Origin: Pseudovirgaria hyperparasitica
Taxonomy: Eukaryota
Length of the DNA: 64,000 nt
Assembly (NCBI GenBank): GCA_010093815.1
Contig: ML996589.1
Direction: 5' to 3' (one strand)
Under the pieces are notes generated by a model. The model was not told where the DNA came from. It did no database searches and saw only the letters and a list, made by a program, of their open reading frames with translations. Below are positions 250 through 61,103 of the stretch, in pieces. Every line of letters starts with the position of its first letter. Position 1 is the first letter of the stretch. A program made the translations under genes and the position numbers.

Positions 250-3200
250 ATATATAGATATCTAATACTAGTTCTATTTCTAAGTCTATCTCCTCCTCTT
301 ATAAGACTTACTCTAAAGGGATTATCTCTACTCTAGCTATACCGGCTAAAAAATCCACTTATTATAGTAGTATAAAGGCGTACTCTAAGTTAGAGAAGAA
401 GATAGCTAAGGCTACTACTACTATTACTACTAATATAGCTACTAGTCACTCTAATCTAGGTAATTCTAGTACTAGTATTATAGAAGAGATAGCTATAAAG
501 CCTATCTATATCTACTTACGCTATCTATCTACTCTACCTTCTTTAGAGAATAAAGAAGATCTTATTATAGATAATAATTAAGAGTTCATACCTTCGCCGC
601 CCCGCTCTAAACGCTATTTCTCTTTTTAGTCTAATATAGACTAACTTAGTTACTCTAGGTTCTTTAAGGACCTTAATATTTACTCTAAACCTAGCTCTAG
701 TAATAATAAGGTCTAGGTTACTAAAGATACTAAATATAGTTACGGTTTACGCCATAGAAAAATAGTAAACTATAGTTTAATATACTTTAAGTATATTAAG
801 GCTTATATAACCGGCTCTAAATATCTCTTCTACTCTAACTCTAGTATTAGCTACTACTCTACTAACTATAATAGGTCTATATATCTAATCTTTAAGCTCT
901 CTACCCGCTACCGCTACTATACTATCCTTAGTAAAGTTTATCTTTAGGTAAGTCTATTAGACTATTTTAGTCTAGAGTAATCTAAAGTTATCTATACTAA
1001 TATATTTTTAGGTTTCTATTTATATATAGAATATATATAATAATCTTCGCGTCTATAAGACTCTTAGTAGTTTTAGTAATTATCTAGCTTCTATAATAAT
1101 AATAATAATAATATTATATAACTAGGTAGAGTAGTACTCTACAGGCCTATGCCTCCTCTAGTCTAAGCCACTATGTAAGAAGAAACCCCATAGGGAAAAA
1201 CTTCCTTATGTCTATAACTACATCTCGTTAAACCTCTGTTTCGTCTTAAGTATATAGCTATAGGGTACGCCTATTAGCCTATAGCCTATATTACCGTTAT
1301 TTTACCCTTAGGCAGCACGTGTAGATGCGGAGGTTATTAGTCAAGGGCTGCCCTTAACTAATAATCGGGGTTCTCCCGGGGTTCTTCCGGTATATGTCGG
1401 GTTACTACTAGCGTATGCCGGGTCTCTTCCGGTATATATTTCCGGGTCCACTAGTACTAGAGGAGTAGTAGATATATAAGTATCCATCGGGAGACGTCCT
1501 TAGAGTACTTATTAAGCTATCGTGTAATATCTAAAGTCTTCGTGACGTGGATAAGCTATTACCGTTATATATAGAGGTTAGGGTATATAGCTAGATAGTG
1601 GCGTATTATATCTCTCCGGCCGCACGCCTTACACCATAGAGACACGTTAGGGACGCCTCTCTTATAGAGGTAGTATAGGAGTTCTATAGCGCCCGTTCGG
1701 GCTTAGATAAGTATAGATGCTTAGGCTTTCGTTAGCCCTTTATATATCTATTTACTCGGTTCCTTCTATAGCCCTCGAATCTACTCTAGGTACCTATTCT
1801 ACTAGGAGGTCTAGTAGGCACGGAGTGCCTCTTTCTACTTATCTTAAGTCCACGACCGCATGTTTTTCACGAGTTCTTAAAGGCTCTACCGGTCTAGGAG
1901 AGCGTCCGGGTTATCTCGGACTTCTTATACTACTTAGCTAGAGTCGGCTTCTATTAAGCACCTGTACCGTATTCGATTCCGGCCTATATATAGGAGTGCG
2001 CGGTAATATATGCTGATTTATGCGCGTAGCGCGGCGAAAGTGTATTCTACGTTTCCTATACGTTTCTATACTTATTATTTAGTAAAGTATACCACCCTCT
2101 ATGTCTAGTAGAAGTTATATATACTTATAACGTCTGTCTCGCGTCGTAGTAGCACCGTGTTAGTAGCTTTATATGCGCCTAATATAAGACGGAGTATACG
2201 GTTCTATATGGATTCGAGCTTTATTCGCCTAGTCTATATAAGGGCCGTGTACTAGCACTCGTGTCTATACGTAAAGGCGGGTCGTGCTATAGATATATAT
2301 AGCTAGCGTACCTTATCCCGGGCGGTTCCCTATATGGAGACTATAATCTATCGTATGGCGGCTTCTACCCGGAGGGCCCTAGAGACGGTGTATACTACTT
2401 ATGGTCCCCATTTAAGCTTGCTATCTAGTATAACTCCGAGCGCGTGTATACTTTATACTAGTAGTTCGTTAAATGCGTCGATTCGGGGGCGTCGTTCGCC
2501 TTCCCTAGTTATCTATTTCCCTTAACGATTGATAAAGTGTATAAGCTAGTATTTCTCCGGGGCGAACTTTGCTCCGTGGCGTTTTACCTACTAGAGGCAC
2601 CTCTTATAGTCCTATTCTAGTCTTCTACACGTTCGGTTAGTATTATTATCGATAGCTAGGAGGTATGTATTATCAGCGTATCCAACTACCTCTATATACT
2701 TCATTCCTTAAAGAAGGTCTACCATAAAGAAGAGGAATAGGATTAGAGAGATGGTGCTCCCTTATAGGATGCCGTATACCGTCTCTTTATATTCGCTTTG
2801 GTATCTAGGGATATATATCTAAGTTGTTCTTCCTATGAGGAATGACTATATAAAGCGTGTAATCTATTCTAGTATTCGTCTTATCCGGAGGTTATGAATA
2901 AGTCTTATATGGTTTACCTTATTAAACGCTCCGGCCATATCGAGGGAGAGGAGCGATACTACCCGTCTCTACTTCTATGCGGCCTAGACGACTTCGATAA
3001 TATATTAGATAGCTATTATTAGGGAGCTATCTACCTTTACCTTCTAGTTCGGAGGGAGGAGATTATGTTTCTATGTCGCGGTGCTTATCTTCTTCGCTAT
3101 TATAGTCTCTAGTATCTTACCTAGGTAGAAGAGAAGGGCGATTAGTCTCCATCCCTTTAGGGAGTTAGGGCTCTTTCCTAGTTTCGGGAGCATAATAGTA

Positions 3201-6200
3201 TGGGCGACTCGGAAGTACTAGGGGTAGTACCCCTACGTGACGCATGCTTGGAATATACGAGTAATAAGCGGTAGGGTCGCCTTTATAGTTCTTTTTAGGC
3301 ATCGATTTAGAATTCCATCTGGTCCGGGTGCTTTGTTATTTAGGAGTATCTTAATAATGTTAAGTATATCCTCCTCCGTAACTTCTTCGGGGATATCTAC
3401 TATATATAGGTATTCGGCGTCGTGAACGTCTAATAGGTCTACTAGTTCTAGGAGAGGGAACATGGCCTCCTGTAGGGCCTTAGTTTTCTTAAGGCTCGTG
3501 GAGTATGTTCTCCCCTAATATATTAGGGGAGGTATAAGTGGCGGGGGTGTCGGAGTATCTACGCCCTTGGCCCATTTCGCTATACGCTATAGCCCTATTA
3601 CGTGTCGTGTCTATTAACTAGTAATTATACGCTACTATTTACGCCTTTTGTTACGGAGGACTTTATCGCGTTATCGTATCGCTTCCTTCTATTCTTCCTA
3701 CGACTCGAGTGTTCTCATACGGTATATACGTCTATATAGCCTTCGGGCGTCTTATCTACTTTCCTATACTTAAGGAATCCCCTTTACTTCCGGGGGCTAG
3801 TATATTTGGTATAGTACGTGTTTATTTCTCGCATTCTAGTATATTTATAGGAGTGTCTATACGGCCTGGTCTATGGCTAGGTTATTAGATACATCGACTA
3901 TAGAGGGATCTAAGATCGCTGATTCTAGGTCCTTTAGGTACTTTTCCTAGTCGGTGTCCTTCTATATCCATCGTCCCCGTTATTTATTCGGGGTATATAC
4001 GTTTATTACGGTTTCCATATATTCGTGGTCGGAATCCGTCTATACCTAGCCTAGGCGGTAGTATTAGATCCGGTGACTAATGTACTCCGTGGCGAAGGTA
4101 AGGTTAAGCGTAGACCCGTCTTCGTCCTATTTATGTTTTTTCTATATAACTTATTCTATAGGTGTAAGTAGGTATAGGAAGTCGTGGTAGCGGGTGTGTA
4201 GTTCCCTTACTCTAAGTTCTTCCCTAACTACGGCTAGGCCTCCCTACTATCGGTAGTAGAGGTTAAAGTCTCCTAGGAGGATGTGTTACCCTGGTTCCGT
4301 GGTACCCTCGAGCATCTCGTCTAGTATAAGTATACGTTATTAGTTATATATATTATATATATATAGGGGGCCTATATCTATTTATAGGTGTAGTATTATC
4401 CTAAGGTTATCGCGCTCGGTGTACGACCATAATAAGAGTGGTATTGATCTATGAATATGGAAGAGGACTTGTCTTTCTAGTCCTAGAGGGTATATAGTAT
4501 GGTATCCGGGGTGTGTGGTTGGTTTACTCGTCTAGTAGTATTTATAGGGTTCCTAGATAGCGAGTATTATGGCCCTAGTCTCTTTAAGGAGCGTCGCCTA
4601 GTTCTCTCTTTTATATTATACGTTTATCTATATAATTTAGAGTATATTCTAGTCCCTTATTAGGTACTAGGGAGTATATATACCTATATACTTATTTCTC
4701 GGAGGCGCGACTATCCTCGCGCGGCAGCGGCTTTAACTATGCCTTTTAGTCGTCCTATCGTCTTCGGGATAATCTACTATCCCGCCTAACTACCTTCCGG
4801 AGGGGAGGTTAGGGGTGTTATAAAGGAAGGGCCCGAGGTAGGTGTTATATTCTATAACTATCTCGCGCCTCTCGCTTTTATCGTACGAATATATTCTATA
4901 ACCTATTTATGTTTTATACACGTTAACGACTATAACGGGTATTTCCCGTCGTAGTTTAAATACTATACTATGTCCCTGTTTCTTAGCCCTTCTCCTCGCG
5001 GTTTATAAGGGCACTCCTAGGTGGCGTGGTCCCCACGGCACTATCCGCACTTAGTCTTCTATAAGTACCTTTGTGTAGTATATCCATACCCTTAATAGTT
5101 AAAGTACTATATTATTGCCCATGCCCTATCCCATGGCTCGGCCATAAGGAGCTCTCCTTCTACTAGGAATCCCTCCTATATAATATGTTATGCGAGGGCG
5201 GGGTCTCGGAGCTCTATAATTATAGTAGAGTGTTTTTTCGCCGTCGTCTTAATCGCCTATAGATTCTTCTACCACGCTTTTACGATCTTAATCCCTAGGT
5301 ATTTTCGCGCGTTAGATTATTCTATACGCGTAATATCCTCCGCTCCGATAGCCTATCCCTACACGGGTACTAAGTGTATCTATATCGGGTATATGGCCGC
5401 CCTAATAGAGGCGCCTAGGAAGATGCTACTAATCGCGTTCGGATCGCGCGAGATAGTCTACTACGCGATATTTGTTATCGTGGTAAGTACTACTCCTCCT
5501 AGCGTGAGTTTAGCGGCAACGATATTTAACTATATTCCCTTTTATTTATTAATCTTACTTACTATGTCCTTTGGGGATGCTCGCTGGACCTATACTAGGG
5601 TATCCTTATCCTAGATTACGACGCGTATACTACACGCCGCGTCGCTAGTCCGGGGGGCCCGTGGTATAGCTTCCGGTGTTACTACTATTTATACCCATGT
5701 ACTAGGGCGCTTACCTTAAGTGAGTTCCTCCTGGATTCTATATAGGCTGGCCTCTATTTGGTCGAGCCTACCCTCCGGTCCTCCTGGTTATGTCTTCTTC
5801 TCCTCCTCTATAATTCCCCTTAGGTTCCGGATAAGGTTCTAGAATATATATAGGAGGGTCTTCTGGCCCTCTCCGGCTTCCTTCTCTATACGTGCTACCT
5901 AGTAGTTAATATAATCTAGGAGGGTTTCCCCTCTCGGGGTCCCCTTTATTCCGCCTATCTATAGCGGCGTGCGCCTTTAGGTGTGTTCTACGTTTTAGAT
6001 AGGTGTATAGCTACCCTTAGTAATATCGCTATATGGCCTTTTCTATCGTACCGGTAGGGGTATATCCGGTATATACCGGGGTATGTCGGTGCCTAAGGCC
6101 GCTATATTTATTAGTTAAGGGCTGCCCTTAACTAATAAAAGGGGGTCGGCGTGTCGGCGTTCTAGTAGCGTGGTCCGTGCCTCTATCTCCGTAAGGATTT

Positions 6201-6856
6201 TAAGAGGGTGTGTATGTATCTTTACACGGCGATAACGTCTTGGTTTCGACGCTGCACGTACGTGCGTGTGGTAGTAGTTAGTGTACTCGGTATACTCTAT
6301 TAATTGAGGTGTGTATCTCGCTATATTACCCCGAATGGACCAAGTTAGCCTCTTGCGTTCGGGTTTATCGAATTTATCTAGCTTCTATATATAGGGAGTT
6401 TAGGGAGCGCTATAAGCTCTTTCTAGAGGTTATTAAAGTATAAGTTTAGAAACCGTTAATTATTATTAACCTTAGCTTATAATTTTTAGTTACTACGAGA
6501 TTCCTAGTACTTAGACTATCTATTCTAGAGAGTTAGTTTTAGCTACTAAGGCCGCGGAAGAGATTTATACTATTTCTTTCTATCCGCCTTATACTACTAA
6601 CGGATCTTATAAGAGATCTACTAGTTCTTCTTCTAAGTTACCTTATAAGAGAGTATATATTCTATTCTAGATTATTCTAGACCGTGTTAGCTAACTTTAG
6701 ATCTAGTTACTCCGCTCTAGCGCTTAGTCGTTATCTTACTAGGCTCTAACTAAGCACGTAGTTACTCTAGAGGATAAGGTCTCTAACCTCTATTACTCTA
6801 TTACTTAGTTAGTTCGTTTACTATACTCTAAGAGTAATAATAAGATAGAGAAGTAG
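250..6856 (+). pseudogene. RIP-degenerate, apparently spliced ORF antisense to Gypsy pol (low-complexity N-terminus, putative Cys cluster, C-terminal coiled coil), split by LINE copy 1
   Basis: Long plus-strand frames at ~370-890 and ~6500-6856 whose stops are TAA/TAG (compatible with CAA/CAG). GTAAGT donor at 948, ACTAAT branch at ~996, TAG acceptor at 1009-1011. Start position approximate. Confidence 0.45.
1096..6373 (-). mobile_element. Tad1-like LINE, copy 1 (full length, RIP-degenerate)
   Basis: (AAT)n tail at ~1096-1113. 16-bp TSD ttatctagcttctata at 1080-1095 and 6374-6389. ORF1 with three CCHC-like knuckles; ORF2 with APE motifs (AI*EP, LLGDFNL, SDH) and RT motifs (KAPGPDGI in ORF 3233-3463, SLDMAGAF, GYADN at ~2670-2685). 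Reverse-complement match to copies 2 and 3. Confidence 0.95.
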
Positions 6857-15256: not shown

Positions 15257-18200
15257 AAAACTTCTCATACCCTAACGGACTAAACTAGTTAATTCGGGGT
15301 AAAACAGCGATTTATATACATTAAACGATAGAGCATACCGAGTATAACAACCTCCGACACACGTATATACGTATAGCGTATAATACGCGACGATACCGAC
15401 GTATAGAGATACTATATATATACGCTTAAAGACTCTTTAATAATATAAGCATAGACTATATCTAATAAATACTAACACGCCGACCCCCTTTTATTAGTTA
15501 AGGGCTGCCCTTAACTAATAACTATAGCGGCCTTAGGCATTATAATACCCCGGTATACGCCGGATATACCCCTACTAGTACGGTAGAAACGGCCATATAG
15601 CGATATTAATATAGATAGCTAGATACCTATCTAAAATATAGGAACTAACTAAGGGTACGAAGCGCTATAGATAATCTAGACTAAGGGGACCCTAAGAGGG
15701 GAGACCCTTCTAGATAAAATTAAATACTAGGTAATACGTATAGAGAGGGACGCCGAGAAGGGAAAGAAGACTCTCCTTTATATATTCCGGGACCTTATCT
15801 AGAACCTAAGAGGAATTATAGAGGAAGAAAGGAAGTTACTATAAGAGGAACCTAGTAGTAGGCTCGACCGAATAGAAGCTAGTCTACGGAGAATCTAGGA
15901 AGAGCTATTCTAAGGTAAGCGCCCTAATACGTGGGCTTAGATTATAGTAACACCCGGAGCCACCGTACTAAGGACTACTAGAACCATAGATAGAGTATAT
16001 AGTATACGTATTATAATCTAGGATAAGGACACGCTAGCGTAGGTCTAATAGGCATCCCTAAAGGAAATTATAAATAAGATTAACGAATAGAAAGAAATAT
16101 AGTTAAGTATCATAGCTACTAAAGTTATACTAGGTGGGATAGTACTTACTACTATAATAAATACTATATAGTAAAACATCTTACGAGATCCGAACGCGAT
16201 AGGTAGTATCTTCCCTAGCGCGTCCATTAGGGTAGCTATATACCCGATTATAGTATACGTAGTACCTATATAGGGATAGGCTATCGAAGCGGAGGATATT
16301 ACGCGTATAGAATAATCTAATACGCGAAAATACCTAGGGATTAAAATCGTGAAAGCGTGGTAGAAGAACCTATAGGCGATTAAGACGACGGCGAAAAAAC
16401 ACTCTACTATAATTATAGAGCTCCGAGACCCCGCCCTTATATAATATATTATATAGGAGGGATTCCTAATAGAAGGAGAGCTCCTTATGGCCGAGCTATA
16501 GGATAGGGCATAGGTAATAATATAGTACTTTAACTATTAAGGGTATAGATACACTATATAAAGGTACTTATAGAAGACTAAGTACGGATAGTACCGTAGG
16601 GACCATGCCATCTAGAAGTACCCTTATAAACCGCGAGGAGACGGACTAAGAAATAGGGATATAGTATAGTATTTAAACTACGACGGGAAATACCCGTTAT
16701 GGTCGTTAACGTGTATAAAACGTAAATAGGTTATAGAATATATTCGCATGATAAAAGTAAGAGGCGCGAGATAGTTATAGAATATAACACCTACTACGAG
16801 CCCTTCCTTTATAATACCCCTAACCTCCCCTCTAGAAGGTAGTTAGGCGGGATAGTAGACTATTCTAAAGACGATAGAATAACTAAAAGGCATAGTTAAA
16901 GCCGCTACCGCGTAAGGATAGTCGCGCCTCCGAGAAATAAGTATATAGATATATATACTCTCTAGTACCTAATAAGGGACTAGAATATACTCCGAATTAT
17001 ATAGGTAAACGTATAATATAAAAGAGAGAACTAGGCGACGCTCCTCGAAGAGACTAGGGCTATAATACTCGCTATCTAGGAACCCTATAAACACTACCAG
17101 ACGAGTAAACCAACTATATACCCTGGATACTATACTATACACCCTCTAGAACTAGAAAGACGAGTCCTCTTCTACATTTATAGGTTAATACCACTCTTAT
17201 TATAGTTATATACCGAGCGCGATAACCTTAGGATAACACTACACCTATAAATAGATATAGGCCCCCTATATATATATAATATATATAATTAATAATATAT
17301 ACTTATACTAGACGAGATGCTCGAGGGTACTATAGAACTAGGGTAACATATCCTTCTAGGAGACTTTAACCTCTACCACTAATAGTAGGGAGGCCTAGCC
17401 ATAGTTAGGGAAGAACTTAGAGTAAGGGAACTACGTACCCGCTATCACGACTTTCTATACCTACTTATACCTATAGAATAAGTTATATAGAAAAAATATA
17501 AATAGGACGAAGACGGGTCTATACTTAACCTTACCTTCGCTACGGAGTACATTAGTTACCCGATCTAATACTACCGCCTAGGCTAGGTATAGACGGATTC
17601 CGACCACGAATATATAGAAACCGTAATAAACGTATATACCCCGAATAAATAACGGGGATAATAGATATAGAAGGATACTAACTAGGAAAAGTACCTAAAG
17701 GACCTAGAATCGGCGATTCTAGATCCCTCTATAGTCGATATATCTAACGACCTAGCTATAGACTAGGCCATATAGACACTCCTATAAATATACTAGAATG
17801 CGAGAAATAAACACGTACTATACTAAATATACCGGCCCCCGGAAGTAAAGGGGATTCCTTAAGTACGGGAAAGTAGATAAGACGCCTAAAGGCTATATAG
17901 ACGCGTATACTATACGAGAATACCTAAGTCATAGAAAGAATAGAAGGAAGTAATATAATAACGTGATAAAGTCCTCTATAACGAAAGGCGTAAATAGTAG
18001 CGTATAATTACTAGTTAATAGATATAATACGTAATAGGGCTATGGCGCATAGCGAAATGGGCTAAGGGCGTAGACACTCCGACACCCCCGCTACTTATAC
18101 CTCCCCTAATATATTAGGGGAGAACATACTCCACGGGCCTTAAGAAAACTAAGGCCCTACGGGAGGCTATATTCCCTCTCCTAGAACTAGTAGACCTATT

Positions 18201-20518
18201 AGACGTTTACGGCGCCGAATATCTACACGCGGTAGATATCCCTAAAGAAGTTATAGAGGAGGATATACTTAATATTATTAAGATACTCCTAAATAATAAA
18301 GTACCCGGACTAGATTAAATTCTAAATCGATGCCTAAAAAGCACTATAAAAGCGACCCTACTACTTATTACTCGTATATTCTAAGCATACGTCACGTAGG
18401 GGTACCACCTCTAGAGCTTCCGAGTCGCCTATACTATTATACTTCCGAAACTAGAAAAGAGCCCTAACTCCCTAAAGGGATAGAGACTAATCGCCCTTCT
18501 CTTCTATCTAGGTAAGATACTAGAGACCACGATAGCGAAGAAGATAAGTACCGTAGTATAGAAATATAATCTTCTCCCTCCGAACTAGAAGGTAAAGATA
18601 GATAGCTCTCTAATAATAGCTATCTAATATATTATTAAAGTCGTCTAGGCCGTATAGAAATAGGGACGGGTAGTATCGCTCCTCTCCCTCGATATAGCCG
18701 GAGCGTTTAATAAGGTAAACCATATAAGACTTATTTATAACCTCCGGATAAGATAAATACTAGAATAGATTATACGCTTTATATAGTTATTCCTTATAGG
18801 AAGAATAACTTAGATATATATCTCTAGGTACTAGAGTAAATATAAAGAGACGGCATGCGGCATCCTATAAGGGAGCACTATCTCTCCGATTCTATTCCTC
18901 TTCTTTATAGTAGACCTTCTTTAAGGAATAAAGTATATAGAGGTAGTCGGATACGCCGATAATATATACCTTCTAGCTATTAATAATAATACTAACCGAA
19001 CGTGTAGATAACTAGAATAGGACCACGAGAGGTGTCTCTAGTAGGTAAAACGCTATAGAGTAAAGTTCGCCCCGGAGAAATACTAGCTTATATACTTTAT
19101 TAATTATTAAGGGAAATAGGTAACTAGGGAAGGTAAATAACGCCCCCGAATCGACGTATTTAACGAACTACTAGTATAAAGCATGCGCGTGCTCGGAGTT
19201 ATACTAGATAGTAAGCTTAAATAGGGACTATAAGTAGTATACGCTATCTCTAGGGCCCTCTAGGTAGAGACCGCTATACGATAGATTATAGCCTCTATAT
19301 AGAGAACCGCCCGGGATAAGGCACGCTAGCTATATATATCTATAGCACGACCCGCCTTTATATACGGACACGAGTGCTAGTATACAGCCCTTATATAGAC
19401 TAGGCGAATAAAGCTTAAATCTATATAGAACCGTATACTCCGTCTTATATTAGGCGTATATAAAGCTACTAATATAGTACTACTATAACGCGAGATAGAC
19501 GTTATAAGTATATATAACTTCTACTAGATATAGAGGGTAGTATACTTTACTAAATAATAAGTATAGGAATATATAGGAAACGTAGAATATACTTTCGCCG
19601 CGCTATATATATAAATTAGTATATATTACCGCGTACTCCTATATATAGGCCGGAATTAAATATAGTATAGGTACTTAATAGAAGCTAACTCTAGCTAAGT
19701 AGTATAAGAAGTCCGAGATAACCCGGACGCTCTTCTAGACTAGTAGAGCCTTTAAGAACTCGTAAAAAATATATAGTCGTAGACTTAAGATAAGTAGAAA
19801 GAGACACTCTATGCCTACTAGACCTCCTAGTAGAATAGGTACCTAGAGTAGATTTAAGGGCTATAGAAGAAACTAAGTAAATAGATATATAAAGGGCTAA
19901 CGAAAGTCTAAGTATCTATACTCATCTAAGCCCGAACGGGCGCTATAGAACTTCTATACTATATCTATAAGAGAGGCGTTTCTAATACCTCCCTATAGTA
20001 TAAGACGTACGGCCGGAGAGGTATAATACGCCACTATCTAGCTATATACCCTAACCTCTATATATAACGGTAATAGCTTATCTATATTATAAAGACTTTA
20101 GATATTATATAATAGCTTAATAAGTACCCTAAGGACGTCTCCCGATAGATACTTATATATCTACTACTCCTCTAGTACTAGTAGACCCAGAAATATATAC
20201 CAGAAGAGACCCGGTATACGCCAGTAGTAACCCGATATATACCAGAAGAACCCCAGGAGAACCCCGATTATTAGTCGAGGGCAGCCCTTAACTAATAACC
20301 TCCGCACCTACACGTACTACCTAAGGGTAAAATAATAGTAATATAGGCTATAGGCTAATAGGCGTACCCTATAGCTATATACTTAAGACGAAATAGAGGT
20401 TTAACAAGATATAGTTATAGATATAAGGAAGTTTTTCTCTATAGGGTTTCTTCTTATATAGTAGCTTAGACTAGAGGAGGCATAGGCCTATAGAGTACTA
20501 CTCTACCTAGTTATATAA

Positions 20519-20578
<60 letters not shown>
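15257..20578 (+). mobile_element. Tad1-like LINE, copy 2 (full length, RIP-degenerate)
   Basis: (ATT)n tail at ~20520-20580. TSD tatagtatatagtt at 15243-15256 and 20579-20592. RT GYADN at ~18950-18965. Collinear with copy 3, differing mostly by transitions. Confidence 0.95.
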
Positions 20579-20582
<4 letters not shown>

Positions 20583-20716
20583 GTATATAGTTATAGACTC
20601 TATATACGCGTGGTGCGGCGACGATGTCGTAAAATGTCAATTACATACAAAAACGCGTGTTGGTGACACAGACGTGCATCGGGCGCCAAGCTTTCCCATG
20701 TAACTATGGACAAACG

Positions 20717-25399: not shown

Positions 25400-25736
25400 A
25401 TACATCTTCGATATCGGCAGCTTCGACCCTATAAGCGGTAATTACTACTAATTCCAAAGGAATCATAAAAAGATGCAATGTTTTCTCTAGCTCCCGCTAA
25501 TTAGCGCCCTCACCAAAATCACGTCGAAAAAACCACCTTTTGCGATATATTAAATTAACCACGCCCTTAATTAAAAGTTTAACCGACACGTCTATAGAGC
25601 TTTCTACGCCGTGTAATTCTATATACTTTTTACTATCTGCAGCCGCGTCGTCGCGGACGAGTAGGCTTTTTAAGCCTCGAGTATCGCGTTTGGTAGCAGG
25701 TTGAAAATTCGCACGTTAGCCGTGGATTTTCCGGTG

Positions 25737-25816
25737 TGCCTTAGTGCCTTAGTGTGCTAGTGTCTTAGTGCCTTAGTGCCTTAGTGTCTTAGTGCCTTAG
25801 TGCCTTAGTGCCTTAA
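25737..25816. repeat. Tandem array of ten 8-bp units (consensus TGCCTTAG)
   Basis: Read directly; variant units tgtgctag, tgtcttag and a final tgccttaa. Confidence 0.95.
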
Positions 25817-31779: not shown

Positions 31780-33460
31780 TGAAGAACTGAAGACCCGGTC
31801 AGTCTCCGATAGACGTGGGACCAGGCTCTCAATGCTTTTGCATCAGTCATGTTTTTGTCACCATAATAGCGAAGGCATATGCACCGCACAGCCCATTATC
31901 CAACATGATCGCATCTTGACAGCGTCATGTTAAAGGAGTTCATTCTGGTAGCTCTAGTGCAGTCTAGCCTACAAGTGAAAGAACACGAGGGGACTTTGAT
32001 AGTGACGGGCCTATCTTTCGCGGAGACCCTACATATTGTCAATCACGCAGATCCGCACCGACACTAGCTAGCCTCTATTAAGAGTAGGAATTGAGTGATA
32101 TTATTACATCCTCCGATAATCACAGCCATCCATCCAATTACCATTTCGCCATCATCACGAGATCCAGGCCTACCTCAGGTGAAGCCATCTGCGATACCTG
32201 ATGCATTGTCAATTGATCCAAGTACAGGCAGGTAGAATGTTACATTTGATGGACAGGTTCTTGAATCGCTATAGACCACATATTTTCCAGCCATGCATGC
32301 TTTTGTCATAATCTAGATGATGTGCACCCATGGCTAGCATTGCATCCGCTGTTGGTCAAGGACATCCTCGTATGTTTGTACTCCTCATCGCGTGTCCACC
32401 AGGCACCGCCGCCACAGGAGTCCTCAACGAATGGTCTGGAAGCACTGTCATCAATTATAAAGAGGTCTTGTTCACGTTGCGTCGCATTCTCGCCACGAAT
32501 CATTCAACCACTTTCGTTCGACCAACTACTCTACGCACCCATCCTTCATGTGCTGATGATGCCCCTGACCATGAAACCTAAGGTTGGTGCCAGGGCTTGC
32601 GCTTCTTTCGCCGCAGGCAACGACGCGCTGAATTCTTCGCGAACGAAGCCAACAGCAGGTTCCGACGGGACAGACGCTTCGACTTTATCGTGCATCCGGA
32701 TGAGCATGCGTCTACAGTAGAAATTAGTAAGTCGTGCACTTCCAGCCGAAACGGCTTAACCGTGGGCCCGGTTCGCGTGGGCACTGTTGAACTGCTGAAT
32801 CGCTTCATACAGGCGTCCTGACTCTCCGGCGTGCATGAATACGGAACCGCACACAGACCCAGGGATGAATGCATTGGCCAGCCGCGTGTCACCAGGTAGA
32901 ACCCACATACTGACATGATGCGCTTTGACGATTCTTTATTGACTACTTTGGTACCTGGACAGGAACGTGTGCAAGAGTGTACTTGCTTTGTTGTTTAAGT
33001 GCAGATTGGTCTATGACCATCTATGGTACCAGGGAACAACTATTCGATACACATCACGTCGGGGCGTCCACTCATGATGCGTGTTGTCGCGCCATAGCCA
33101 TGAGATGCTGGAACGTATTAGGCACTAGCCATGCAGGCAGAGTCTTTTGACATGGATGGGAGCGAGATCCATGGATTGGGTCCGGAGAAACGTTCACCGG
33201 TAACCAGTCTGTCAACGCAAACGTTGCGCGTCGCGATTGTAGACTCCCAGACGCGGTACGACGCGGCAAGCTGGGAACCTGAGGTGGAAACTTTTGTTTA
33301 TCATTCATTGTCATTCACTGTTGTTAGCTCCATTCATTTTGCGTTTGTGTCTCTCATTGATCATATCATCACATTCCATCTATCATCCCGTCTCTTCCAT
33401 GTCTATCTTCCATTTCATCTTCCATCTTTCATGTTCCATCTCTTCTATTTTACCATCTTC

Positions 33461-33698
33461 ATCTTCTATCTTCTATCTTCTATCTTCTATCTTCTATCTT
33501 CTATCTTCTATCTTCTATCTTCTATCTTCTATCTTCTATCTTCTATCTTCTATCTNNNNNNNNNNNNNNNNNNNNNNNNNNNNNNNNNNNNNNNNNNNNN
33601 ATCTTCTATCTTCTATCTTCTATCTTCTATCTTCTATCTTCTATCTTCTATCTTCTATCTTCTATCTTCTATCTTCTATCTTCTATCTTCTATCTTCT
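33461..33698. repeat. (ATCTTCT)n heptanucleotide microsatellite spanning an assembly gap (N at 33556-33600)
   Basis: Read directly. Confidence 0.97.
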
Positions 33699-34202
33699 GT
33701 CTCTTCCTTCATGCTCATTGTGACCATCGTGCCTTTTTCTTGCCTCCCGTTCTGCTCTTGTCATGCTCGACCTGGTTGGTCGGTGTCCACGATGCTTACC
33801 TTCATCGTTACCACAGCGCATGGCTCACGGGTAGCAGCAGCAACAGCAGCAGCAAGTTGCCTACCGTCCTGCAAACCCAGCTTCACCCTGTTTGTCAACG
33901 GCCTGCGGAAGTTTGCGACAGGCGCATGGTTCATGATTCATGGTTCATGGTCTATACGCGTCGCATGCGTTATTCGCAGTATGTAGCTGATCCGGCCGGC
34001 TCTGAAGCGTCGTCTCGCCATCCATGCTGCTTTATCTAAACATGCTTCCGCTCACGCTCCGTCAAGACTCTTTTCCACAATCTGTCTTCCATTACAACCA
34101 GTCTGCGCCTTACTGCCTCTCCTCTTGTTTTCCTCCAGGTGCGGCATCACACACACATACACAGCATAGTGCCTCTGCCTGCTTGTGCACTACTGGACCG
34201 TC

Positions 34203-49791: not shown

Positions 49792-49953
49792 TATTATTAG
49801 TAGAAAGTAGACGTGATTGAGGTCATTGAATGTATTCTGTAATTGTGTGTAGAGAACTAAGTTCTGGGAGACAGAGTCGAAGCTATTTAACCGTTTAGAC
49901 ACTAGTCCCGTTTAGGAAGTAGTATCTCTTACTTAAAGTACCTTCCGATAACA
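49792..49953 (-). repeat. Copia 3' LTR
   Basis: Matches 60942-61103 with 12 differences, all transitions. Confidence 0.96.
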
Positions 49954-50318
49954 CTCCCCCATACTAAGTATATATATATATACTTAGTAATATTAGAATA
50001 AAGGAAAGCTTAAAGTAAGTAATAGTAAGAGATAGTACTAAAAGAATAAAGGAAAGAGTAGTACAAGTAAGATAACTCTACTATAAACTAATTATCGTCT
50101 TTATTTAATTTAGTAGTAGTAAGGGTAGTTCTTTTATTCCTATATTAGTAATATTATTATAACTTATAATATACTAAATAGATATAACTCTATTAGTAAA
50201 TAATTCTTAAACCGCGTAATAGTATATCGCGATATATTTAGACCGTACTATGATTTACTAGTTTCGGATAAGGGCTATTATAGCTTAATTATCCGTAAGA
50301 AGATAGAGAACTAGAATA

Positions 50319-51263
50319 ATAATAATAATATTAATATTAGTGTTTAACTAGGAAGAACTATATATATAGCCATATATATGCTCCATAGGCTTAGGCCTCC
50401 TCTAGTATTGGCTGCTATATATATAAGAAAACCTCCTATGATTAGCTCCCTAACTAGACCCTATTACTAACCTAACCTAGCCTAGTCTAAGTCCTCGAAT
50501 CCTATTAGGTGATAAACTTACTTCTTATCCTTATATTAGGCTTTTATTACTATATTAGTACCGGCTCTTAATAACGCCCTAACTAACTATAGTAGGTATT
50601 ACCTTTCTTATGATTAGGTAGGTCGCTAGGCTAGGCCTAGTCTTTTATTCCTATATTACCGTGTTTTTTCCTATCCATGGGAATATAGCTTTACGCCGGG
50701 TAGTAGTTATTAATTAAGATGACTAATGCCGGAGGGGGTATATATCTAATAGGTCCATGCCTTAGCACTAACCCTAGCTAGGCCGAATTCGGAAATTATT
50801 CTTCGGGGCTATATAATCGTCTATAGATAGGCGGGATACTTAATTAGGTATTACTATCTATTTCGTGGTTACCGAGCCGGAGTAAGCGCGAGCTAAGCCG
50901 GATTAGGGTGGACAAGGCCCTAGTATATAGTGAAAATTCTATGATTCGAGCTAAGCTAGTTATGGGTCTAGCTACTCTAGGCGTCGCTCTACCACTTAAG
51001 GTGGCTTAGTAGGTGGCTATATTAGGTAATTCTCATTATATAATAACGGTATAGTCATTTTCATATTACCTAATGGTCGCTTAGGACTAAGTAGTTATAT
51101 AACGGTAACCTTCACGTCACGTGCTCGCTTAGCCCCGTATACTTTTTAATAGAGTGTGCGAAAACTAGTACATAAAAAGGTGGCCGTTATAGGATTCAAA
51201 CCCACGACGTTGGATAACAAACGCTTCTAGTAACGTAGTACACTACCACTACGCCACCTGGCT
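50319..51263 (-). mobile_element. tRNA-derived SINE (~945 bp) with a LINE-like 3' end, inserted in the Copia RNase H region
   Basis: 12-bp TSD agaactagaata (50307-50318, 51264-51275). (ATT)n tail. Pol III A box TGGCGTAGTGG (51256-51246) and B box GGTTTGAATCC (51202-51192) at the 5' end. The Copia RNase H frame resumes across the insertion. Confidence 0.88.
51178..51263 (-). promoter_or_regulatory. tRNA-like SINE head (internal Pol III promoter, A and B boxes)
   Basis: Minus strand reads AGCCAGG-TGGCGTAGTGG-(43 nt)-GGTTTGAATCC-TATAACGGCCA. The acceptor stem is imperfect. Confidence 0.8.
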
Positions 51264-54016
51264 AGAACTAGAATATTATAATTTATAAAGATCTCTTTTA
51301 TATCTAGTAGAGCCTACTATAAGTAACTTATAGCCTTTAAGTAGGCTATATACTCTACTTTATATATCGACTTAGTAATATATAATTACCTCTTACTATT
51401 CTAGGCTACTAAGCTTCTATTTAATTAAAGAATATATATAGAGATAGACTTAGCGGTATTAGAATCTAAACCCTAAGAAGTATCTAAGAATATATTAATT
51501 TCTATTACGCCTTTAGACTTCTTTAGTATAAGATATTAGTCAATAGTATACTTAATATATTATAATATACTAAAGGCTATTTAAGTATATTACTCTAATA
51601 GATTCATATTAAAAGTAGCATATATTCTAACTATAAAGGCAAGATCTAGACGCGTACTAGTAACGAGATAATTAAGTAACCTAATTAGTTATATATATAT
51701 AAGCTAGCGTTCTTAATTAATAATTTCTTCCGATCTTATTAGAAAGGTATTTATATTAACTAGAGTCTTTCTACTATTATAATCTATTATACTAAACCTT
51801 TTTAGAATACGTTAAGAGTAAGCCTTTTAAGAAAGCTTAATTTAGTCTTCTTAAGATTAATTAATCTTAATATCTAATATTAAGCGCGCTTCTCTAAGAT
51901 CTTTATATTTTATATATTCTATAATCTATTACTTAAAGTATTGAATATAAGGTTTCTCCCCTATAAGTAGTAGGTTATTAATATAGATAGTAATAATAAT
52001 ATATCTAATAAAGATATATAGATTAAACTATAACTATTAGAATTTAAGAGATTAAAGGAGGTTACGTAAGGTATAAAACTATTTCTAACTAGATTATTTT
52101 AATCTATAAATTACCTTTTAGAGCTTAAGAATCTTACCTGGTTTTTTAAAGCCTAGCGGGTATCGTATATAGATATTTTTAGATAGACTACTATTTAGAT
52201 AGATAGTATTAAAATCGATCTAGTAAACATGCTTATTAAATTATACGGCCTATTAGAGTATAATATAAAGAGAATTATATTTAATAATAGATATAAAAGT
52301 TTTATTATAATTAAGACCGTATTTCTATGTAAAGCCCTATATAATAAGACGTACCTTATAAACTTTAGTATTATCCGTAGTAGTCTTAATATTAAATATC
52401 TATCTAGAGCTAACTATTATAGAGACATTTATAGTAAGCGGAGCTTCCTACTATAATTAATTAATCTTATAACTTCTTAGCTCTTTTTTAATAGCTATTT
52501 ATAACCAATACTAATTAGAAGAATTCCTAGTCTCTTTTAGGTTCGAAGGAACGTCTATATTTAAGGTAGTATTAACTAATAGGGTATAGATTATTTCCTT
52601 CTCTTCTATATCTACTAAATTTATAGAGTTATTAAAATAAATTATATACTTGCGTTTCCTCCTAAAACAAGATATATTAGAAGGTAATCTTAATAAATAT
52701 AGATTTTCGTGTAGTAGGTTATAGCTAGAGAAAGATTCGAATTTTAGTTAATTTACCCTAGGTATAGTAGAAGGCGTCCTACTATAAGAAAGGGTAGATA
52801 ATCTTCGTTAGGATATCTTAGTAAGACTTATTATATCTTCTATATAGAGCTAGAGGTTCTATATATTTTAGACTACGACTAGTATATTATAAGATACTCC
52901 TCTATTATCCGACTCTTCTTTAGAGCTATCTCTTTCTATAATAAATAAGGAAAGAGGTTACTATAGAAGTAGTCTCGGACTAAAGGGTACGAAAGTAACA
53001 TCTTATAACTTAATAATAACCTTACGGTTAGGAATATAGTACTTATAGATTTTATCTAATTTACTATAGCTAACTAGAATACCTTTCTCTAATCTATAGA
53101 GGAGCTTACTATCTAGCTTTTATACTTCTTTTAGGATATATATATACTCTAAATAGATATAAGTTTTAGATAGAAGGCTTCTTACTAAAGAGAGTATAAT
53201 ATAGCATGTTAACTATTAGAAGAGAGGTATATAGTATAATATTCTTAATAAACGTTATTATATAAATTACTTTAGCCTAGAATTTTAACTTAGTATTAGA
53301 AGAGAGAATAGATCTTACTAATGTCTAAACTATACGGTTAAACCTTTCGGCTATTCCGTTTAACTTATAAGAGTAGATAGAAGAGGTAATATATATAGTA
53401 CTAGTCTTATAAAAGAAGTCTTAAAGACTTTTAGTAATATACTTACCGCCTCGATTAGATACGAATTCTTTAATATCTATATTAAACTACTTCTTAATAT
53501 ATACGAAGAACTATATAATAATATTAGGAGCTTCTAACTTATACTTTATAAAGCGGACCTATATAAAGCGAGTTAATTCTTTAATAAAGGAGATATAGTA
53601 CTATAACCTATTTAGAGACTTATACGGTATTTTACTAGAGAGGTCGCTATAAACTCTACTAAACCGTGTCTTATATTACCTATTCGAGCTTAAAGGTTTC
53701 TTATATATAGATTTAGATATACTATAACTCTTATAGTAGAAGTTACTTAGCCGCTTAGGAATTATATTAAAATCTTTATAAAGTCTTTTAGAATTTATAA
53801 TATAATAATAATCTATAGTATAATAGAATTCTTTATATAATATAAAGTATACTATAGTATATAATAGAAGTAGAGAAGATATATAGCGTAGGTAAATCTT
53901 CATAAGGCCCTTATAGAATTTTACCTATATTACTTTAGATCCGTAGTAGTTATATAAGAAGAGGTTATTCCCTTTTACTCTTAAACTATACCCTTAATTT
54001 CTAATATATAACTAGG

Positions 54017-57000
54017 GAAACTTCTCACACCCTAACGGACTAAACTAGTTAATTCGGGGTAAAACAGCGATTTACATACATTAAACGATAGAGTATACCG
54101 AGTATAATAACCTCCGATACACGTGTATATATATAGTATATAATACGCGACGATACCGACGTATAGAGATACTATATATATACGCTCGAAGACTCTTCGA
54201 TAACACGAGTATAGACTATATCTAATAAACGCCGACACGCTAACCCCCTTTTATTAGTTAAGGGCTACCCTTAACTAATAACTATAGCGGCCTTAGGCAT
54301 TATAATACCCCGGTAGACGCCGGATATACCCCTACTAGTATAGTAGAAACGGCTATATAGCGATATTAATATAGATAGCCAGACACCTATCTAAAATATA
54401 GGTACTAACTAAGGGTGCGAAGCGCTATAGATAACCTAGACCGAGGGGACCCCGAGAGGGGAGACCCTCCTAGATAAAATTAAATACTAGGTAATACGTG
54501 TAGAGAGGGACGCCGAGGAGGGAAAGAAGACCCTCCTTTATATATTCCGGGACCTTATCCGGAACCTAAGAGGAATCATAGAGAAAGAAAGGAAGTCACC
54601 ACGAGAGGAACCTAGTAGTAGACTCGACCGAATAGAAGCCAGCCTACAGAGAATCTAGAAAGAGCTATCCTAAGGTAAGCGCCCTAACACGTGGGCTTAG
54701 ATTATAGTAATACCCGGAGCTACTATACTAAGGACCACTAGGACTATAGATAGAGTATATAGTATACGTATTATAATCTAGGATAAGAACACGCTGGCGT
54801 AGGTCTAATAGGCATCCCTAAAGGAAATTATAAATAAGATTAATAAATAGAAAGGAATGTAGTCGAGCGTCGTAGCTACTAAAGTTACGCTAGGTAGGGT
54901 AGTACTTACTACTATAATAAATACTACGTAGTAAAACATCTCGCGAGATCCGAACGCGATAGGTAGTATCTTCCCTAGCGCGTCTATTAGGGTAGCTATA
55001 TACCCGATTATAGTATACGTAGTATCTATACGGGGATAGGCTATCGGAGCGGAGGATATTACGCGTATAGAATAATCCAACACGCGAAAATACCTAGGGA
55101 TTAAGATCGTAAAAGCGTGGTAGAAGAACCCATAGGCGATTAAGACGACGGTAAAAAAACACTCTACTATAATTATGGAGCTCCGAGACCCCGCCCTCGC
55201 ATAATATATTATATAGGAGGGATTCCTAGTAGAAGGAGAGCTCCTCATGGCCGAGCCATAGGATAGGGCATAGATAATAATATAGTACTTTAACTATTAA
55301 GGGTATAGATACACTATATAAAGGTACTTATAGAAGACTAAGTGCGGATAGTGCCGTAGAGACCACGCTACCTAGGAGTACCCTTATAAACCGCGAGGAG
55401 ACGGACTAAGAAATAGGGATATAGTATAGTATTTAAACTACGACGGGAAACACCCGTCGTAGTCGTTAATATATATAAAATGTAAATAGATTATAGAATA
55501 CATTCGCACGATAAAAGCGAGAGGCGCGAGATAGTTATAGAATATAATACCTACCACGGGCTCTTCCTTTATAATACCCCTAACCTCCCCTCCGGAAGGT
55601 AGTTAGGCGGGATAGTAGACTATTCCGAAGATAATAGGACGACTAAAAGGCATAGTTAAAGCCGCTACCGCGCGAGGATAGTCGCGCCTCTAAGGAATAA
55701 GTATATAGGTATATATACTCCCTAGTACCTAATAAGGGACTAGAATATACTCCGAATTATATAGGTAAATATATAATATAAAAGAGAGAACTAGACGACA
55801 CTCCTCGAAGAGACCAGGGCCATAATACTCGCTATCTAGGAACCCTATAAATACTACTAGACGAGTAAACCAACCATACACCCCGGATACTATACTATAC
55901 ACCCTCTAGGACTAGAAAGACGAGTCCTCTTCTATATTTATAGGTTAATACTACTCTTATTATGGTCGTATACTAAGCGCGATAACCTTAGGATAACACT
56001 ATACCTATAAATAGATATAGGCCCCCTATATATATATAATATATATAACTAATAACGTGTACTTATACTAGACGAGATGCTCGAGGGTACCACGGAACTA
56101 GGGTAATATATCCTTCTAGAAGACTTTAACCTCTACTACTAATAGTAGGGAGGCCTAGCCGTAGTAAGGGAAGAACTTAGAGTAAGGGAACTACGCACCC
56201 GCTACCACGACTTTCTATACCTACTTACACCTATAGAATAAGTTATATAGAAAAAACATAAATAGGACGAAGACGGGTCCACGCTTAACCTTACCTTCGC
56301 CACGGAGTATATTAGTTACCGGATCTAATACTACCGCCTAAGCTAGGTATAGACGGATTCCGACTATGAATGTATAGAAACCGTAATAAACGTATATACC
56401 CCGAATAAATAACGGGGACGATAGATATAGAAGGATACCGACTAGGAAAAGTACCTGAAGGACCTGGAATCGGCGATCCTAGATCCCTCTATAGTCGATA
56501 TATCTAATAACCTAGCTATAGACCAGGCCGTATAGACACTCCTATAAACATACTAGAATACGAGAAATAAACACGTACTATACTAAATATACCGGCCCCC
56601 GGAAGTAAAGGGGATTCCTTAAGTATAGGAAAGTAGATAAGACGCCCGAAGGCTATATAGACGCGTACACCGTACGAGAATACCCGAGTTATAGAAAGAA
56701 TAGAAGGAAGTAATATAATAACGCGATAAAGTCCTCCGTAATAAAAGGCGTAAATAGTAGCGTATAATTACTAGTTAATAGACATGATATATAATAGGGC
56801 TATAGCGCATGGCGAAATAGGCTAAGGGCGTAGACACTCCGACACCCCCGCTACTTATACCTCCCCTAATATATTAGGGAAGAATATACTCCATAGGCCT
56901 TAAGAAAACTAAGGCCCTACGGGAGGCTATATTCCCTCTCCCGGAACTAGTAGACCTATTAGACGTTTACGGCGCTAAATATCTATATACGGTAGATATC

Positions 57001-59296
57001 CCTAAAGAAGTTACGGAGAAGGATATACTTAATATTATTAAGATACTCCTAAATGATAAAGCACCTAGACTAGATGGAATTCTAAATTAATGCCTAAAAA
57101 GTACTATAAAAGTAACCCTACCGCTTATTACTTATATATTCTAAGCATGCGTCATGTAGGGGTACCACCCCTAGAGCTTCCGAGTCGCCTATACTATTAT
57201 ACTCCCGAAGCTAGGAAAGAGCCCTAACTCCCTAAAGGGATAGAGACTAATCGCCCTTCTCTTCTACCTAGGTAAGATACTAGAGGCTATAGTAGTGAAG
57301 AAGATAAGTACCGCGGTATAGGAATATAATCTCCTCCCTCCGAACCAGAAGGTAAAGATAGATAGCTCTCTAATAATAGCTATCTAATATATTATTAAAG
57401 TCGTCTAGGCCGTATAGAAATAGGGACGGGTAGTATCGCTCCTCTCCCTCGATATGGCCGGAGCGTTTAATAAGGTAAACTATATAAGACTTATTTATAA
57501 CCTCCGGATAAGACGAATACTAGAATAGATTATACGCTTTATATAGTTATTCCTTATAGGAAGAATAACTTAGATATATATCCCTAGGTACTAGAGCGAA
57601 TATAAAGAGACGGTATACGGTATCCTATAAGGGAGCACTATCTCTCTAATCCTATTCCTCTTTTTTATGGTAGACCTTCTTTAAGAAATAAAGTATATAG
57701 AGGTAGTCGGATACGCCGATAATATATATCTTCTAGCTATTAATAATAATACTAACCGAATGTATAGACGACTAGAATAGGACCACGAGAGGTGCCTCTA
57801 GTAGGTAAAACGCTACGGAGTAAAGTTTGCCCCGGAGAAATACTAGCTCATGCACTTTATTAACCGTTAAGGGAAATAGATAACTAGGGAAGGCGAATAA
57901 CGCCCCCGAATTAACGTATTTAACGAACTACTAGTATAAAGCATACGCGCGCTCGGAGTTATACTAGATAGTAAGCTTAAATAGGGACCATAAGTAGTAT
58001 ACGCCGTCTCTAGAGCCCTCTAGATAGAAGCCGCTATATAATGGATTATAGCCTCCACGTAGGGAACCGCCCGGGATAAGGCACGCTAGCTATATATATC
58101 TATAGTACGACCCGCCTTCACGTACGGACACGAGTACTAGTATATAGCCCTTATATAGACTAGGCGAATGAAGCTCGAATCCATATAGAACCGTATACTC
58201 TATCTTATATTAGGCGTATATAAAGCTACTAACACGGTGCTACTACGACGCGAGATAGACGTTATAAGTATATATAACTTCTACTAGATATAGAGAGTAG
58301 TATACTTTACTAAATAATAAGTATAGAAATATATAGGAAACGTAGAATATACTTTCGCCGCGCTACGTGTACGAATTAGTATATATTACTATATACTTCT
58401 ATATATAGGCCGGAATTAAATACGGTATAGGTGCTTAATAGAAGCCGACTCTAGCTAAGTAGTATAAGAAGTCCGAGATAACCCGGACGCTCTTCTAGAC
58501 TAGTAGAGCCTTTAAGAACTCGTAAAAAATATACGGTCGTGGACTTAAGATAAGTAGAAAGAGGCACTCCGTGCCTACTAGACCTTCTAGTAGAATAGGT
58601 ACCTAGAGTAGATTCGAGGGCCATAGAAGGAACTAAGTAAATAGATATATAAAGGGCTAATAAAAGCCTAAGCATCTATACTTATCTAAGCCCGAACGGG
58701 CGCTATAGGACTCCTATACTATATCTATAAGAGAGGCGTTCCTAATATCTCCCTATAATATAAGGCGTACGGCCGGAGAGGTATAATATACCACTATCTA
58801 GCTATATACCCTAACCTCTATATATAACGGTAATGGCTTATCCACGTTACGAAGACTTTAGATATTATATAATAGCTTAATAAGTACCCTAAGGATGTCT
58901 CCCGATAGATACTTATATATCTACTACTCCTCTAGTACTAGTAGACCCGGAAATATATACCGGAAGAGACCCGGTATATACTAGTAGTAACCCGATATAT
59001 ACCGGAAGAACCCCGGGAGAACCCCGATTATTAGTTAAGGGCAGCCCTTAACTAATAACCTCCGCACCTATACGTGCTACCTAAGGGTAAAATAACGGTA
59101 ATATAGGTTATAGGCTAATAGGTGTACCCTATAGCTATATACTTAAGACGAAATAGAGGTTTAACGAGATGTAGTTATAGATATAAGGAAGTTTTTCCCT
59201 ATGGGGTTTCTTCTTATATAGTGGCTTAGACTAGAGAAGGTATAGGCCTATAGAGTACTACTCTACCTAGTTATATAATATTATTATTATTATTAT
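54017..59296 (+). mobile_element. Tad1-like LINE, copy 3 (full length, RIP-degenerate), inserted between Copia protease and integrase
   Basis: 15-bp TSD taatatataactagg (54002-54016, 59297-59311). (ATT)n tail. ORF1 knuckles at ~55285-55470, ORF2 from ~55745, SLDMAGAF at ~57445, GYADN at ~57710. Confidence 0.95.
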
Positions 59297-60941
59297 TAAT
59301 ATATAACTAGGAGAAAAGGTATATAGAATTTAGTTACTTACTAAAGAGGATATTAGTAAGTTTAACCTTTTTTATAGAACCGTCTAAGAGAATATAATCT
59401 AGGAAAACTATTCTAATACTATTAATAGGAATCTTCTAATAATTTATAATTAATATATTACTAGAGGTGCGTGGTTCTAGTAAGGTAAAGTTATCTATAT
59501 AACCCGATATATATCGTAATACACCTAAATCGAAGATCTAGTTATATACGTCTACGGTTACATTAGAATTCGTAAGAAGTCTAATAGCTTTAATACTTAG
59601 ATCCGAAAATATTACTAAAATAAGAGGCTAACTTACTACTCGAGATCGCTTACTATTTATATTAGCTTTAGTTACGAAGAAACTAACGACGTTATTATTA
59701 GAGTTAGATTCGGAATCTAAAATTTCGATAACTTTAGCCTTATTAGCTTTTTATCGCTTGCTTAAGAAGTCCTTTTTAGAAGACTTCTTATCTAACTTAT
59801 TTTTAGACTTATTATTATTCTTAGAAGCCTTAAGCTTACGGTAGTTCTAATACTTATAGCCTTTAGAAGAGAAGCCGCGTTTCTTATACTAGGTGCATTT
59901 AATATTAGAGATAGAAGCGGAGGTAGAGAAGGAGTTAGACTTCTTTAACTTAGAAGGCTAACTAGACTTACCCTTATAGCTTACCTTATAGCTAGTAGTA
60001 TCGGATTTAATACTATATTTCTTAGCTAGATTAAGTATCTTTAGCTCGATGTCTTAAAATTATAATATATCTTAAGTTAATAAATTATTAATAATATAGT
60101 CTATAGTATTAGGTAATAAGATAAGAAAGAATAAACCCTTAACCTCTTTAGACTTAAAAATTAGACGTATTACTTTTATGACTATATAAGATAAAGTAGC
60201 GTATCTTTTTACTATTTGTATCTAGGTATAATAGAAATTATTAATATATTTATAGATATCTTCTCTGTCTTTATAGCGGAGGTTAGCGAGTAATCTAAAT
60301 AGATATATTAAAGAATTACCTATATCACGGTCGAAACGTAATAATAGATAACTCTATATAGCTACTACTATATTATAGAAAGTAAGATCTATAATAAGAT
60401 CTTAATATATTAACGAGAGTAATATAATTATTATCTTATTATTCTTTATATTTTAATCTATTATATCTATATATAAATCCGTGACTCTAGTACTAAAGGG
60501 TCTAATAACCCTACTAGAGACTATTATCTATAATTATATATATTTAAATATAATTATCTAAGCTAATCTCTACTCGGGGAAATTCTCTCCTCTTAAAGAT
60601 AGCTTAGATAGAGAGAAAGGGTCGAGTTTGAAATTAATAGACATGGTTATTAACAAGTTTCTCGGGTTCCTTCTCTTTCTTTATATAGGACTTATTCTAA
60701 CTCTTTCTATTTATTACGTATTCGTAAGAAAGATAGTAAAGGTAAAAGAGATAGGAGGACGGTATAGAGGACGATATAGAGGCCGGGAGTTAATAAGGTA
60801 GTAGAATTAAAGTAAAACTTTAATAAGATTAATAAGACAACTAAGTTTTAGAGAAGGGACTTGCTTTTATTAAAATATAATAGTTTTTATTAATAAAGAG
60901 GTGTTTTAAGGCTTTTATAGTAAAGCGCCGGGCTTATAACC

Positions 60942-61103
60942 TATTATTAGTAGAAAGTAGACGTGATTAAGGTTATTAAATATATTCTATAATTATGTGT
61001 AGAGAACTAAGTTCTAGGAGACAGAGTCGAAGCTATTTAACCGTTTAGACACTAGTCCCGTTTAGGAAGCAGTGTCTCTCACTCAAAGTACCTTCCGACA
61101 ACA
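60942..61103 (-). repeat. Copia 5' LTR
   Basis: Minus strand starts TGTTGT; followed by the PBS-like motif and the gag ATG at ~60644. Confidence 0.96.

Follow-up and report, generated by a model that had tools for sequence, protein, structure and literature searches.

The window, the whole 64,000-nucleotide stretch of Pseudovirgaria hyperparasitica DNA analysed here, carries a 945-bp SINE copy on its minus strand (51263 to 50319). We describe the insertion, the genomic family to which it belongs, and the features that tie it to a resident LINE. The element is very probably a tRNA-derived SINE mobilized in trans by that LINE, which encodes an APE endonuclease and a reverse transcriptase (RT). 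This reading builds on sequence comparison: the copies form a dispersed, noncoding family in which insertions have their own duplications, with internal promoter boxes of the type-2 Pol III kind at the 5' end and a 3' end homologous to that of the LINE. On each of these points, the evidence supports the original prediction, a SINE with a tRNA head and a 3' end related to that of a LINE. Few fungal SINE/LINE pairs are documented, to judge from table rows in PMC3747384, so that a pair with a near-intact LINE offers a testable case of 3'-end recognition. The family is relevant to repeat annotation and to SINE specialists.

The insertion is discrete, and its predicted coordinates are exact (Table). 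A 12-bp duplication flanks the copy, and the state of the site without the insert is preserved in paralogues of the host Copia. With the flank as query, we retrieved 11 non-self loci; one does not span the site, and the other 10, which represent 8 distinct places, contain the 12-mer once and no insert. Within the Copia, the SINE breaks up the terminal part of the pol frame, a region read by eye as RNase H. The host is delimited by its LTRs and a 5-bp duplication and encodes RVT_2 (E 2.9e-27); the same Copia contains a LINE copy, so the SINE and the LINE do lie within one element, as had been proposed.

Table. Features of the SINE insertion, its host Copia, and the resident LINE, in window coordinates.
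Feature	Position	Strand	Details
SINE copy	50319..51263	-	945 bp, subfamily 1; RIP-mutated, 67/109 CpA/TpG sites changed
Target-site duplication, 5' side	51264..51275	.	12 bp; single copy in 8 empty Copia paralogues
Target-site duplication, 3' side	50307..50318	.	12 bp
tRNA-like head	51181..51263	-	83 nt; complementary GGCC ends and discriminator-like A, T-arm; D/anticodon region is a predicted 12-bp hairpin
A box	51246..51256	-	intact in window copy; element positions 8-18
B box	51192..51202	-	C>T in window copy; element positions 62-72
T5 run	51174..51178	-	RIP-made from TTTTC; second native T4 10 nt beyond
Body	50434..51173	-	~740 bp; no stop-free frame over 90 codons; no LINE homology
Two predicted hairpins, body start	51084..51160	-	one on a CACGTG-type palindrome
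LINE-related 3' segment	50337..50433	-	4-bp hairpin 50387-50398; terminal hairpin 50352-50384; CCTAGTT motif
(TAT)n tail	50319..50336	-	native, not RIP-made
Host Copia	49792..61103	-	162-bp LTRs 49792-49953 and 60942-61103, 5-bp duplication; RVT_2 E 2.9e-27
LINE copy inside Copia	54017..59296	+	15-bp duplication; SINE-counterpart 3' segment ~59204-59285
Second LINE copy	15260..20581	+	RVT_1 E 7e-15; Exo_endo_phos_2 E 0.042 (below cut-off); RIP-broken
Third LINE copy	1093..6336	-	exact 3' string quoted in the original prediction

A genome search returned 36 matches at about 34 distinct loci, in two subfamilies. Among the matches are 23 full-length copies at 93-100% identity, two head-less copies, two copies cut by N gaps, two 3' stubs, and the second subfamily, at 71-83% identity. 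Target-site duplications of their own accompany 26 of the 29 distinct loci examined, namely 24 full-length copies, with distinct duplications, and the 2 head-less ones; the element is not a single-copy sequence. The loci without a duplication are L017, which has its 3' flank in common with L009, and L028 and L029; L026, a partial duplicate next to an N gap, was left out.

Differences among the copies are mostly RIP transitions. RIP indices and the nearest protein relatives both point to a filamentous ascomycete as the organism. Subfamily-1 copies differ by a mean of 2.75 transversions per pair, versus 31-60 transitions from L003. C>T changes amount to 55% in CpA context, 9% in CpG, 2% in CpC, and 1% in CpT, a partly circular measure that is taken against a RIP-reverted consensus. 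RIP is present in every SINE copy and has altered 16-93% of CpA/TpG sites. RIP acts above about 400 bp, according to a passage in PMC4522978, and at 945 bp this SINE is long enough for it; for a SINE above that threshold, RIP breaks the boxes and makes a stronger terminator. The consensuses of the two subfamilies are 23 transversions and 38 gap columns apart, and the family therefore spread in at least two waves.

The resident LINE is 5.3 kb long and present in three copies in the window. Genome-wide, it accounts for at least 150 RT hits (150 of 256 candidates scored), about 85 of them closely resembling the window copy and the others at 65-85%. Two copies, L158 (G000:C52) and L159 (G000:C39), keep a stop-free RT and are almost without RIP. 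Their 3' flanks agree, and both lack the same ~276 bp close to the end of ORF2, so that they probably stem from a single insertion that was duplicated or assembled twice. ORF1 of L158 spans 486 aa, with three Cys/His motifs recognized by eye (zf-CCHC E 0.045, below the cut-off), and ORF2 matches Exo_endo_phos_2 (E 1e-13) and RVT_1 (E 3e-33). Tad1-clade LINEs combine an ORF1 with CCHC knuckles and an ORF2 with an APE endonuclease and RT. The best named hits of the LINE are ascomycete ORF2-like proteins at 30-34% identity, and the best unnamed hits reach 37-38%. Domain layout and ascomycete neighbours make membership of the Tad1 clade likely; the earlier label "Tad-like" stands on these two grounds, not on a tree with named references. 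A search for RNase H gave no hit in L158, which has the ~276-bp deletion near the ORF2 end, and the 12 closest homologues of L158 are also without it. An RNase H domain is described for fungal superfamily-I elements in part of PMC4112212, where AAT tails are reported for such LINEs as well. A palindrome of about 31 bp occurs twice per LINE copy, at the ORF1 start and the ORF2 stop (window 15491-15521 and 20268-20298, 54251-54281 and 59028-59058; LINE positions 244 and 4761 in L158). It is absent from the SINE and is thus seemingly dispensable for trans-mobilization.

The 3' ends of the two elements are related. In natural copies with tails removed, the last ~100 nt of the SINE align to the 3' end of the resident LINE with a score of 65. 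Dinucleotide shuffles (n=2000) gave 26.0 +/- 4.8 with a maximum of 49, none reaching 65, and the rest of the LINE scored at most 30 against the same segment. Identity is approximately 75-85%, in two blocks, with an insert of about 18 nt in the SINE only; BLAST resolves one block of 53 nt at 77% and another of 36 nt at 86%, the second of which takes in tail repeats. A search with the last 146 nt of the SINE did not retrieve the LINE. Both elements end in the same TAT tail, in keeping with the LINE-like simple repeat noticed at the outset, and the barely mutated L158 has both this tail and the shared 3' motif, which are therefore native. The LINE 3' string that had been quoted belongs to the copy whose end lies near window 1090-1160, and the copy within the Copia carries RIP changes at this place.

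Both 3' ends can form a predicted 4-bp hairpin followed by a terminal hairpin, which in the SINE is longer and is extended by an AT palindrome. The 4-bp stem is kept, and its 4-nt loop differs among the LINE variants and the SINE. Neither fold is more stable than those of shuffled sequences (z -0.55 and -1.12). Support for the hairpins lies in conservation and not in compensatory change; MAFFT misplaced the hairpin insert of the SINE.

SINE and LINE also have a target signature in common. TAT opens the duplication at 24 of 24 SINE sites and at 23 of 23 LINE sites (43 LINE copies were examined, 20 of which gave no duplication), against a background of 41% per 9-nt window. The base after TAT is A at 20 of the 24 SINE and 18 of the 23 LINE sites, and the median duplication is 15 bp for the SINE and 13 bp for the LINE. 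RIP of the flanks could inflate the TAT figure; three SINE copies with little or no flank RIP (L003, L015, and L025) also lie at TATA. In two cases, as judged by eye, a SINE and a LINE are inserted at an identical base position in homologous repeats of the host (L008 with L073, and L014 with L170). SINEs sit inside LINEs at L006 and L012, and at L150 and L151 SINE 3' stubs of 54-59 nt stand head-to-head with LINE 5' ends; the active periods of the two elements therefore overlapped. The arrangement at L150 and L151 resembles the outcome of a LINE insertion into the TATA-rich hairpin of a SINE.

There is an outside chance that the tail donor and mover was a related LINE lineage, now lost or unsampled. 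The modest identity of the 3' ends, the hairpin extension private to the SINE, and the scoring of 150 of the 256 RT candidates leave room for such a lineage, as does genomic location: five small contigs, C23-C26 and C30, contain 23 of 34 SINE loci versus 40 of 150 LINE hits (Fisher p 1e-5, for a contig set picked after the data had been seen) and possibly form an accessory compartment. The target signature, duplication length, shared sites, and mutual nesting nonetheless fit the resident family, and all three sampled LINE 3' variants have the motif common to the SINE. Furthermore, a pattern for the tail spacing of the SINE gave 33 hits, consisting of 27 SINE-type and 6 LINE-type variants, and no other element carried the SINE spacing. 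A metagenome scan with a strict pattern produced a single match in which the tail is absent; it was judged to be chance and says little on distribution. Under mobilization by the resident LINE, which we favor, the ORF2 protein would bind the two 3' hairpins of the SINE RNA, nick a TAT(A) site, and prime reverse transcription on the TAT tail, giving rise to a duplication of 11-15 bp.

At the other end of the element, A and B boxes are found as predicted, the B box of the window copy bearing a C>T change. Each box matches its consensus in 16 of 25 full-head copies. The head is remodelled relative to a tRNA, in that its D and anticodon region is predicted to fold into one 12-bp hairpin in place of a cloverleaf. 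ARAGORN found no tRNA in the window, and relaxed ARAGORN made only inconsistent calls on consensus copies. Rfam searches with the window copy and five less-mutated loci yielded nothing credible (one hit at E 1.2 on the window copy), and thus no part of a known ribozyme, 5S, 7SL, or snRNA was recognized. A search for the parent among 49 genomic tRNAs, an incomplete set for which 63 of 937 candidates were scored, gave best scores of 58 versus 50.5, too small a margin to name one. The best match of the whole head is tRNA-Leu(CAG), and its 5' 19 nt are closest to tRNA-Ser(CGA) at 17/19, both by small margins within this incomplete set. A DNA search with the head as query returned SINE copies only. 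The head is tRNA-like in its boxes, its T-arm, its acceptor-like ends, and its length of 83 nt; no parent was found among those 49 tRNAs. The SINE may have originated from a tRNA gene or pseudogene together with its 3' trailer and flanking DNA, to which a captured LINE 3' end was joined.

The T5 run just after the head had been suspected of being a RIP product of TTTTC, and the alignment agrees: of 26 aligned copies spanning the site, 11 read TTTTC and the other 15 read T5. Native T4 runs at element positions 86 and 100 remain once RIP is undone, and the pre-RIP consensus has no T5 across 945 nt. Both boxes and T4C are kept in 7 of 25 full-head copies (L003, L015, L016, L018, L019, L022, and L023). 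Among tRNA genes of the P. hyperparasitica genome, T4 is the only kind of run within 40 nt at 13 of 49, and at 4 of 30 the next 150 nt contain T4 runs but no T5. In yeast, Pol III termination needs T5-T6 and read-through is frequent, according to a passage in PMC5356446. With two native T4 runs after the head and T4-only trailers at 4 of 30 tRNA genes, read-through is still needed for a full-length RNA. Pol III would start at G1, directed by the A and B boxes, and would sometimes read past both T4 runs and through the whole body. The leaky terminator would derive from a tRNA gene trailer and be strengthened by RIP; across the family, RIP has disrupted boxes and has converted TTTTC to T5 in the 15 copies. 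With its broken B box and T5, the window copy is probably dead.

Truncated copies bear on this boundary. Both 5'-truncated SINE copies with a verified duplication start close to it, at 88 and 89, within 6 nt of the head end; for five truncation points, the probability of two landing in a 12-nt window is about 0.002, with a window chosen after the data had been seen. The plain reading is that reverse transcriptase stalled at the folded head. It is conceivable but doubtful that the SINE RNA was cleaved by tRNA-type 3' processing where head and body meet, or stopped there at the T4 run, and that the head-less body was itself retroposed. If true, this would combine with RIP-written T5 terminators and a RIP-multiplied TATA preference into a concise account of the life cycle of a long SINE exposed to RIP. 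Four sequencing runs compared with the head-less locus L156 showed no joint that would mark an empty site. Contigs of the runs X3 and X4 span the head-less junction of L156, and these runs may be the source of the assembly. The runs X1 and X2, whose kind is unrecorded, gave one long SINE contig on L156, with a loose 3' end that matches the L015 flank; their depth over L156 is very uneven, unlike that of X3 and X4, and is not interpretable as expression.

The retroposed RNA might instead be a Pol II product, made by read-through from the flank or from a promoter in the CACGTG hairpin, with the head as a passenger or as the source of a separate short Pol III RNA that would end at the T4 runs. 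The native T4 runs at 86 and 100, the four T4-only tRNA genes, and the two copies that begin right at a T4 run speak for this account. We consider it improbable: 23 of 23 full-length subfamily-1 copies share their start base, 7 nt before the A box in a Pol III-like position, the pre-RIP consensus is free of T5, and the yeast enzyme, in the passage cited above, needs T5-T6 and often reads through.

Between head and tail lies the body, which had been called unrelated and about 730 bp long. It has no long ORF: in the consensus and the three least-mutated copies, the longest stop-free frame is 90 codons and the longest from an ATG is 37. A genome search for its origin returned family members only. 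Against the near-intact L158, the body has no blastn match longer than 19 nt, and tblastn finds nothing in ORF1 or ORF2, which for this LINE family answers the earlier concern that it might be a truncated LINE ORF2. That the whole element is an internally deleted or truncated LINE derivative and not a SINE is extremely improbable. It has the 3' end and tail in common with the LINE, but neither the body nor the 31-bp palindrome connects the two, and its 5' end is tRNA-like, unlike that of the LINE. The first ~80 nt of the body are predicted to form hairpins, with z = -2.28 in the natural copy L156 and z = -2.3 and -3.5 in consensus windows.

The P. hyperparasitica SINE is a further case of a published kind of fungal SINE/LINE pairing. 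Two table rows of PMC3747384 list the pairs Mg-SINE/MGL and SINE2-1_BG/Tad1-24_BG. Mg-SINE of Magnaporthe grisea is likewise a multicopy tRNA-derived SINE that shares its 3' end with a resident LINE, MGL/MGR583 (PMC3747384 and PMC5063351, in part); compared by description, it is 472 bp long with about 100 copies and a cloverleaf, whereas the present SINE is 945 bp long with about 34 loci and no cloverleaf. SINE2-1_BG of Blumeria graminis resembles it in having a tRNA head and a 3' end paired with a Tad1-clade LINE, Tad1-24_BG (same rows of PMC3747384), but is given as tRNA-Gly-derived in a passage of PMC5063351; here, the head is of Leu/Ser length and all copies are RIP-mutated. AfuSINE2-1a of Aspergillus, set beside I-4_AO and I-1_AF, is similar in its A and B boxes, short duplications, and lack of a cloverleaf, and its 3' end resembles a Tad1 LINE 3' UTR (PMC5063351, in part). 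It is much shorter, with its LINE-like part at 210-335, whereas the present family has many independent insertions and a target signature shared with the LINE. Compared by length, mgsr1 (800 bp), Egr1 (700 bp), and EGH24 (900 bp) belong to the same 700-900-bp class, and the introduction passage of PMC5063351 gives no LINE partner for them. The novelty first claimed was thus overstated, since fungal tRNA-SINE/Tad1 pairs (rows of PMC3747384) and fungal SINEs of 700-900 bp (passage of PMC5063351) are already published. No prior description of this particular family was found in the open-access papers searched.

Several further features accompany these repeats. The SINE copy L029 (L154:2217-2794) contains a TRIM-like insert of about 580 bp that splits the SINE 3' hairpin; the insert is bounded by direct repeats of 140 bp that are 89% alike and comes with a 5-bp duplication. 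In the window, a 1152-aa NRPS frame with A-T-C domains (20600-24058, minus strand) stops right where the tail of the LINE copy 15260-20581 lies, and may have been truncated by that insertion. An 8-bp array of 10 copies occupies 25736-25815, and a 7-bp tandem array surrounds an assembly gap at 33402-33702.
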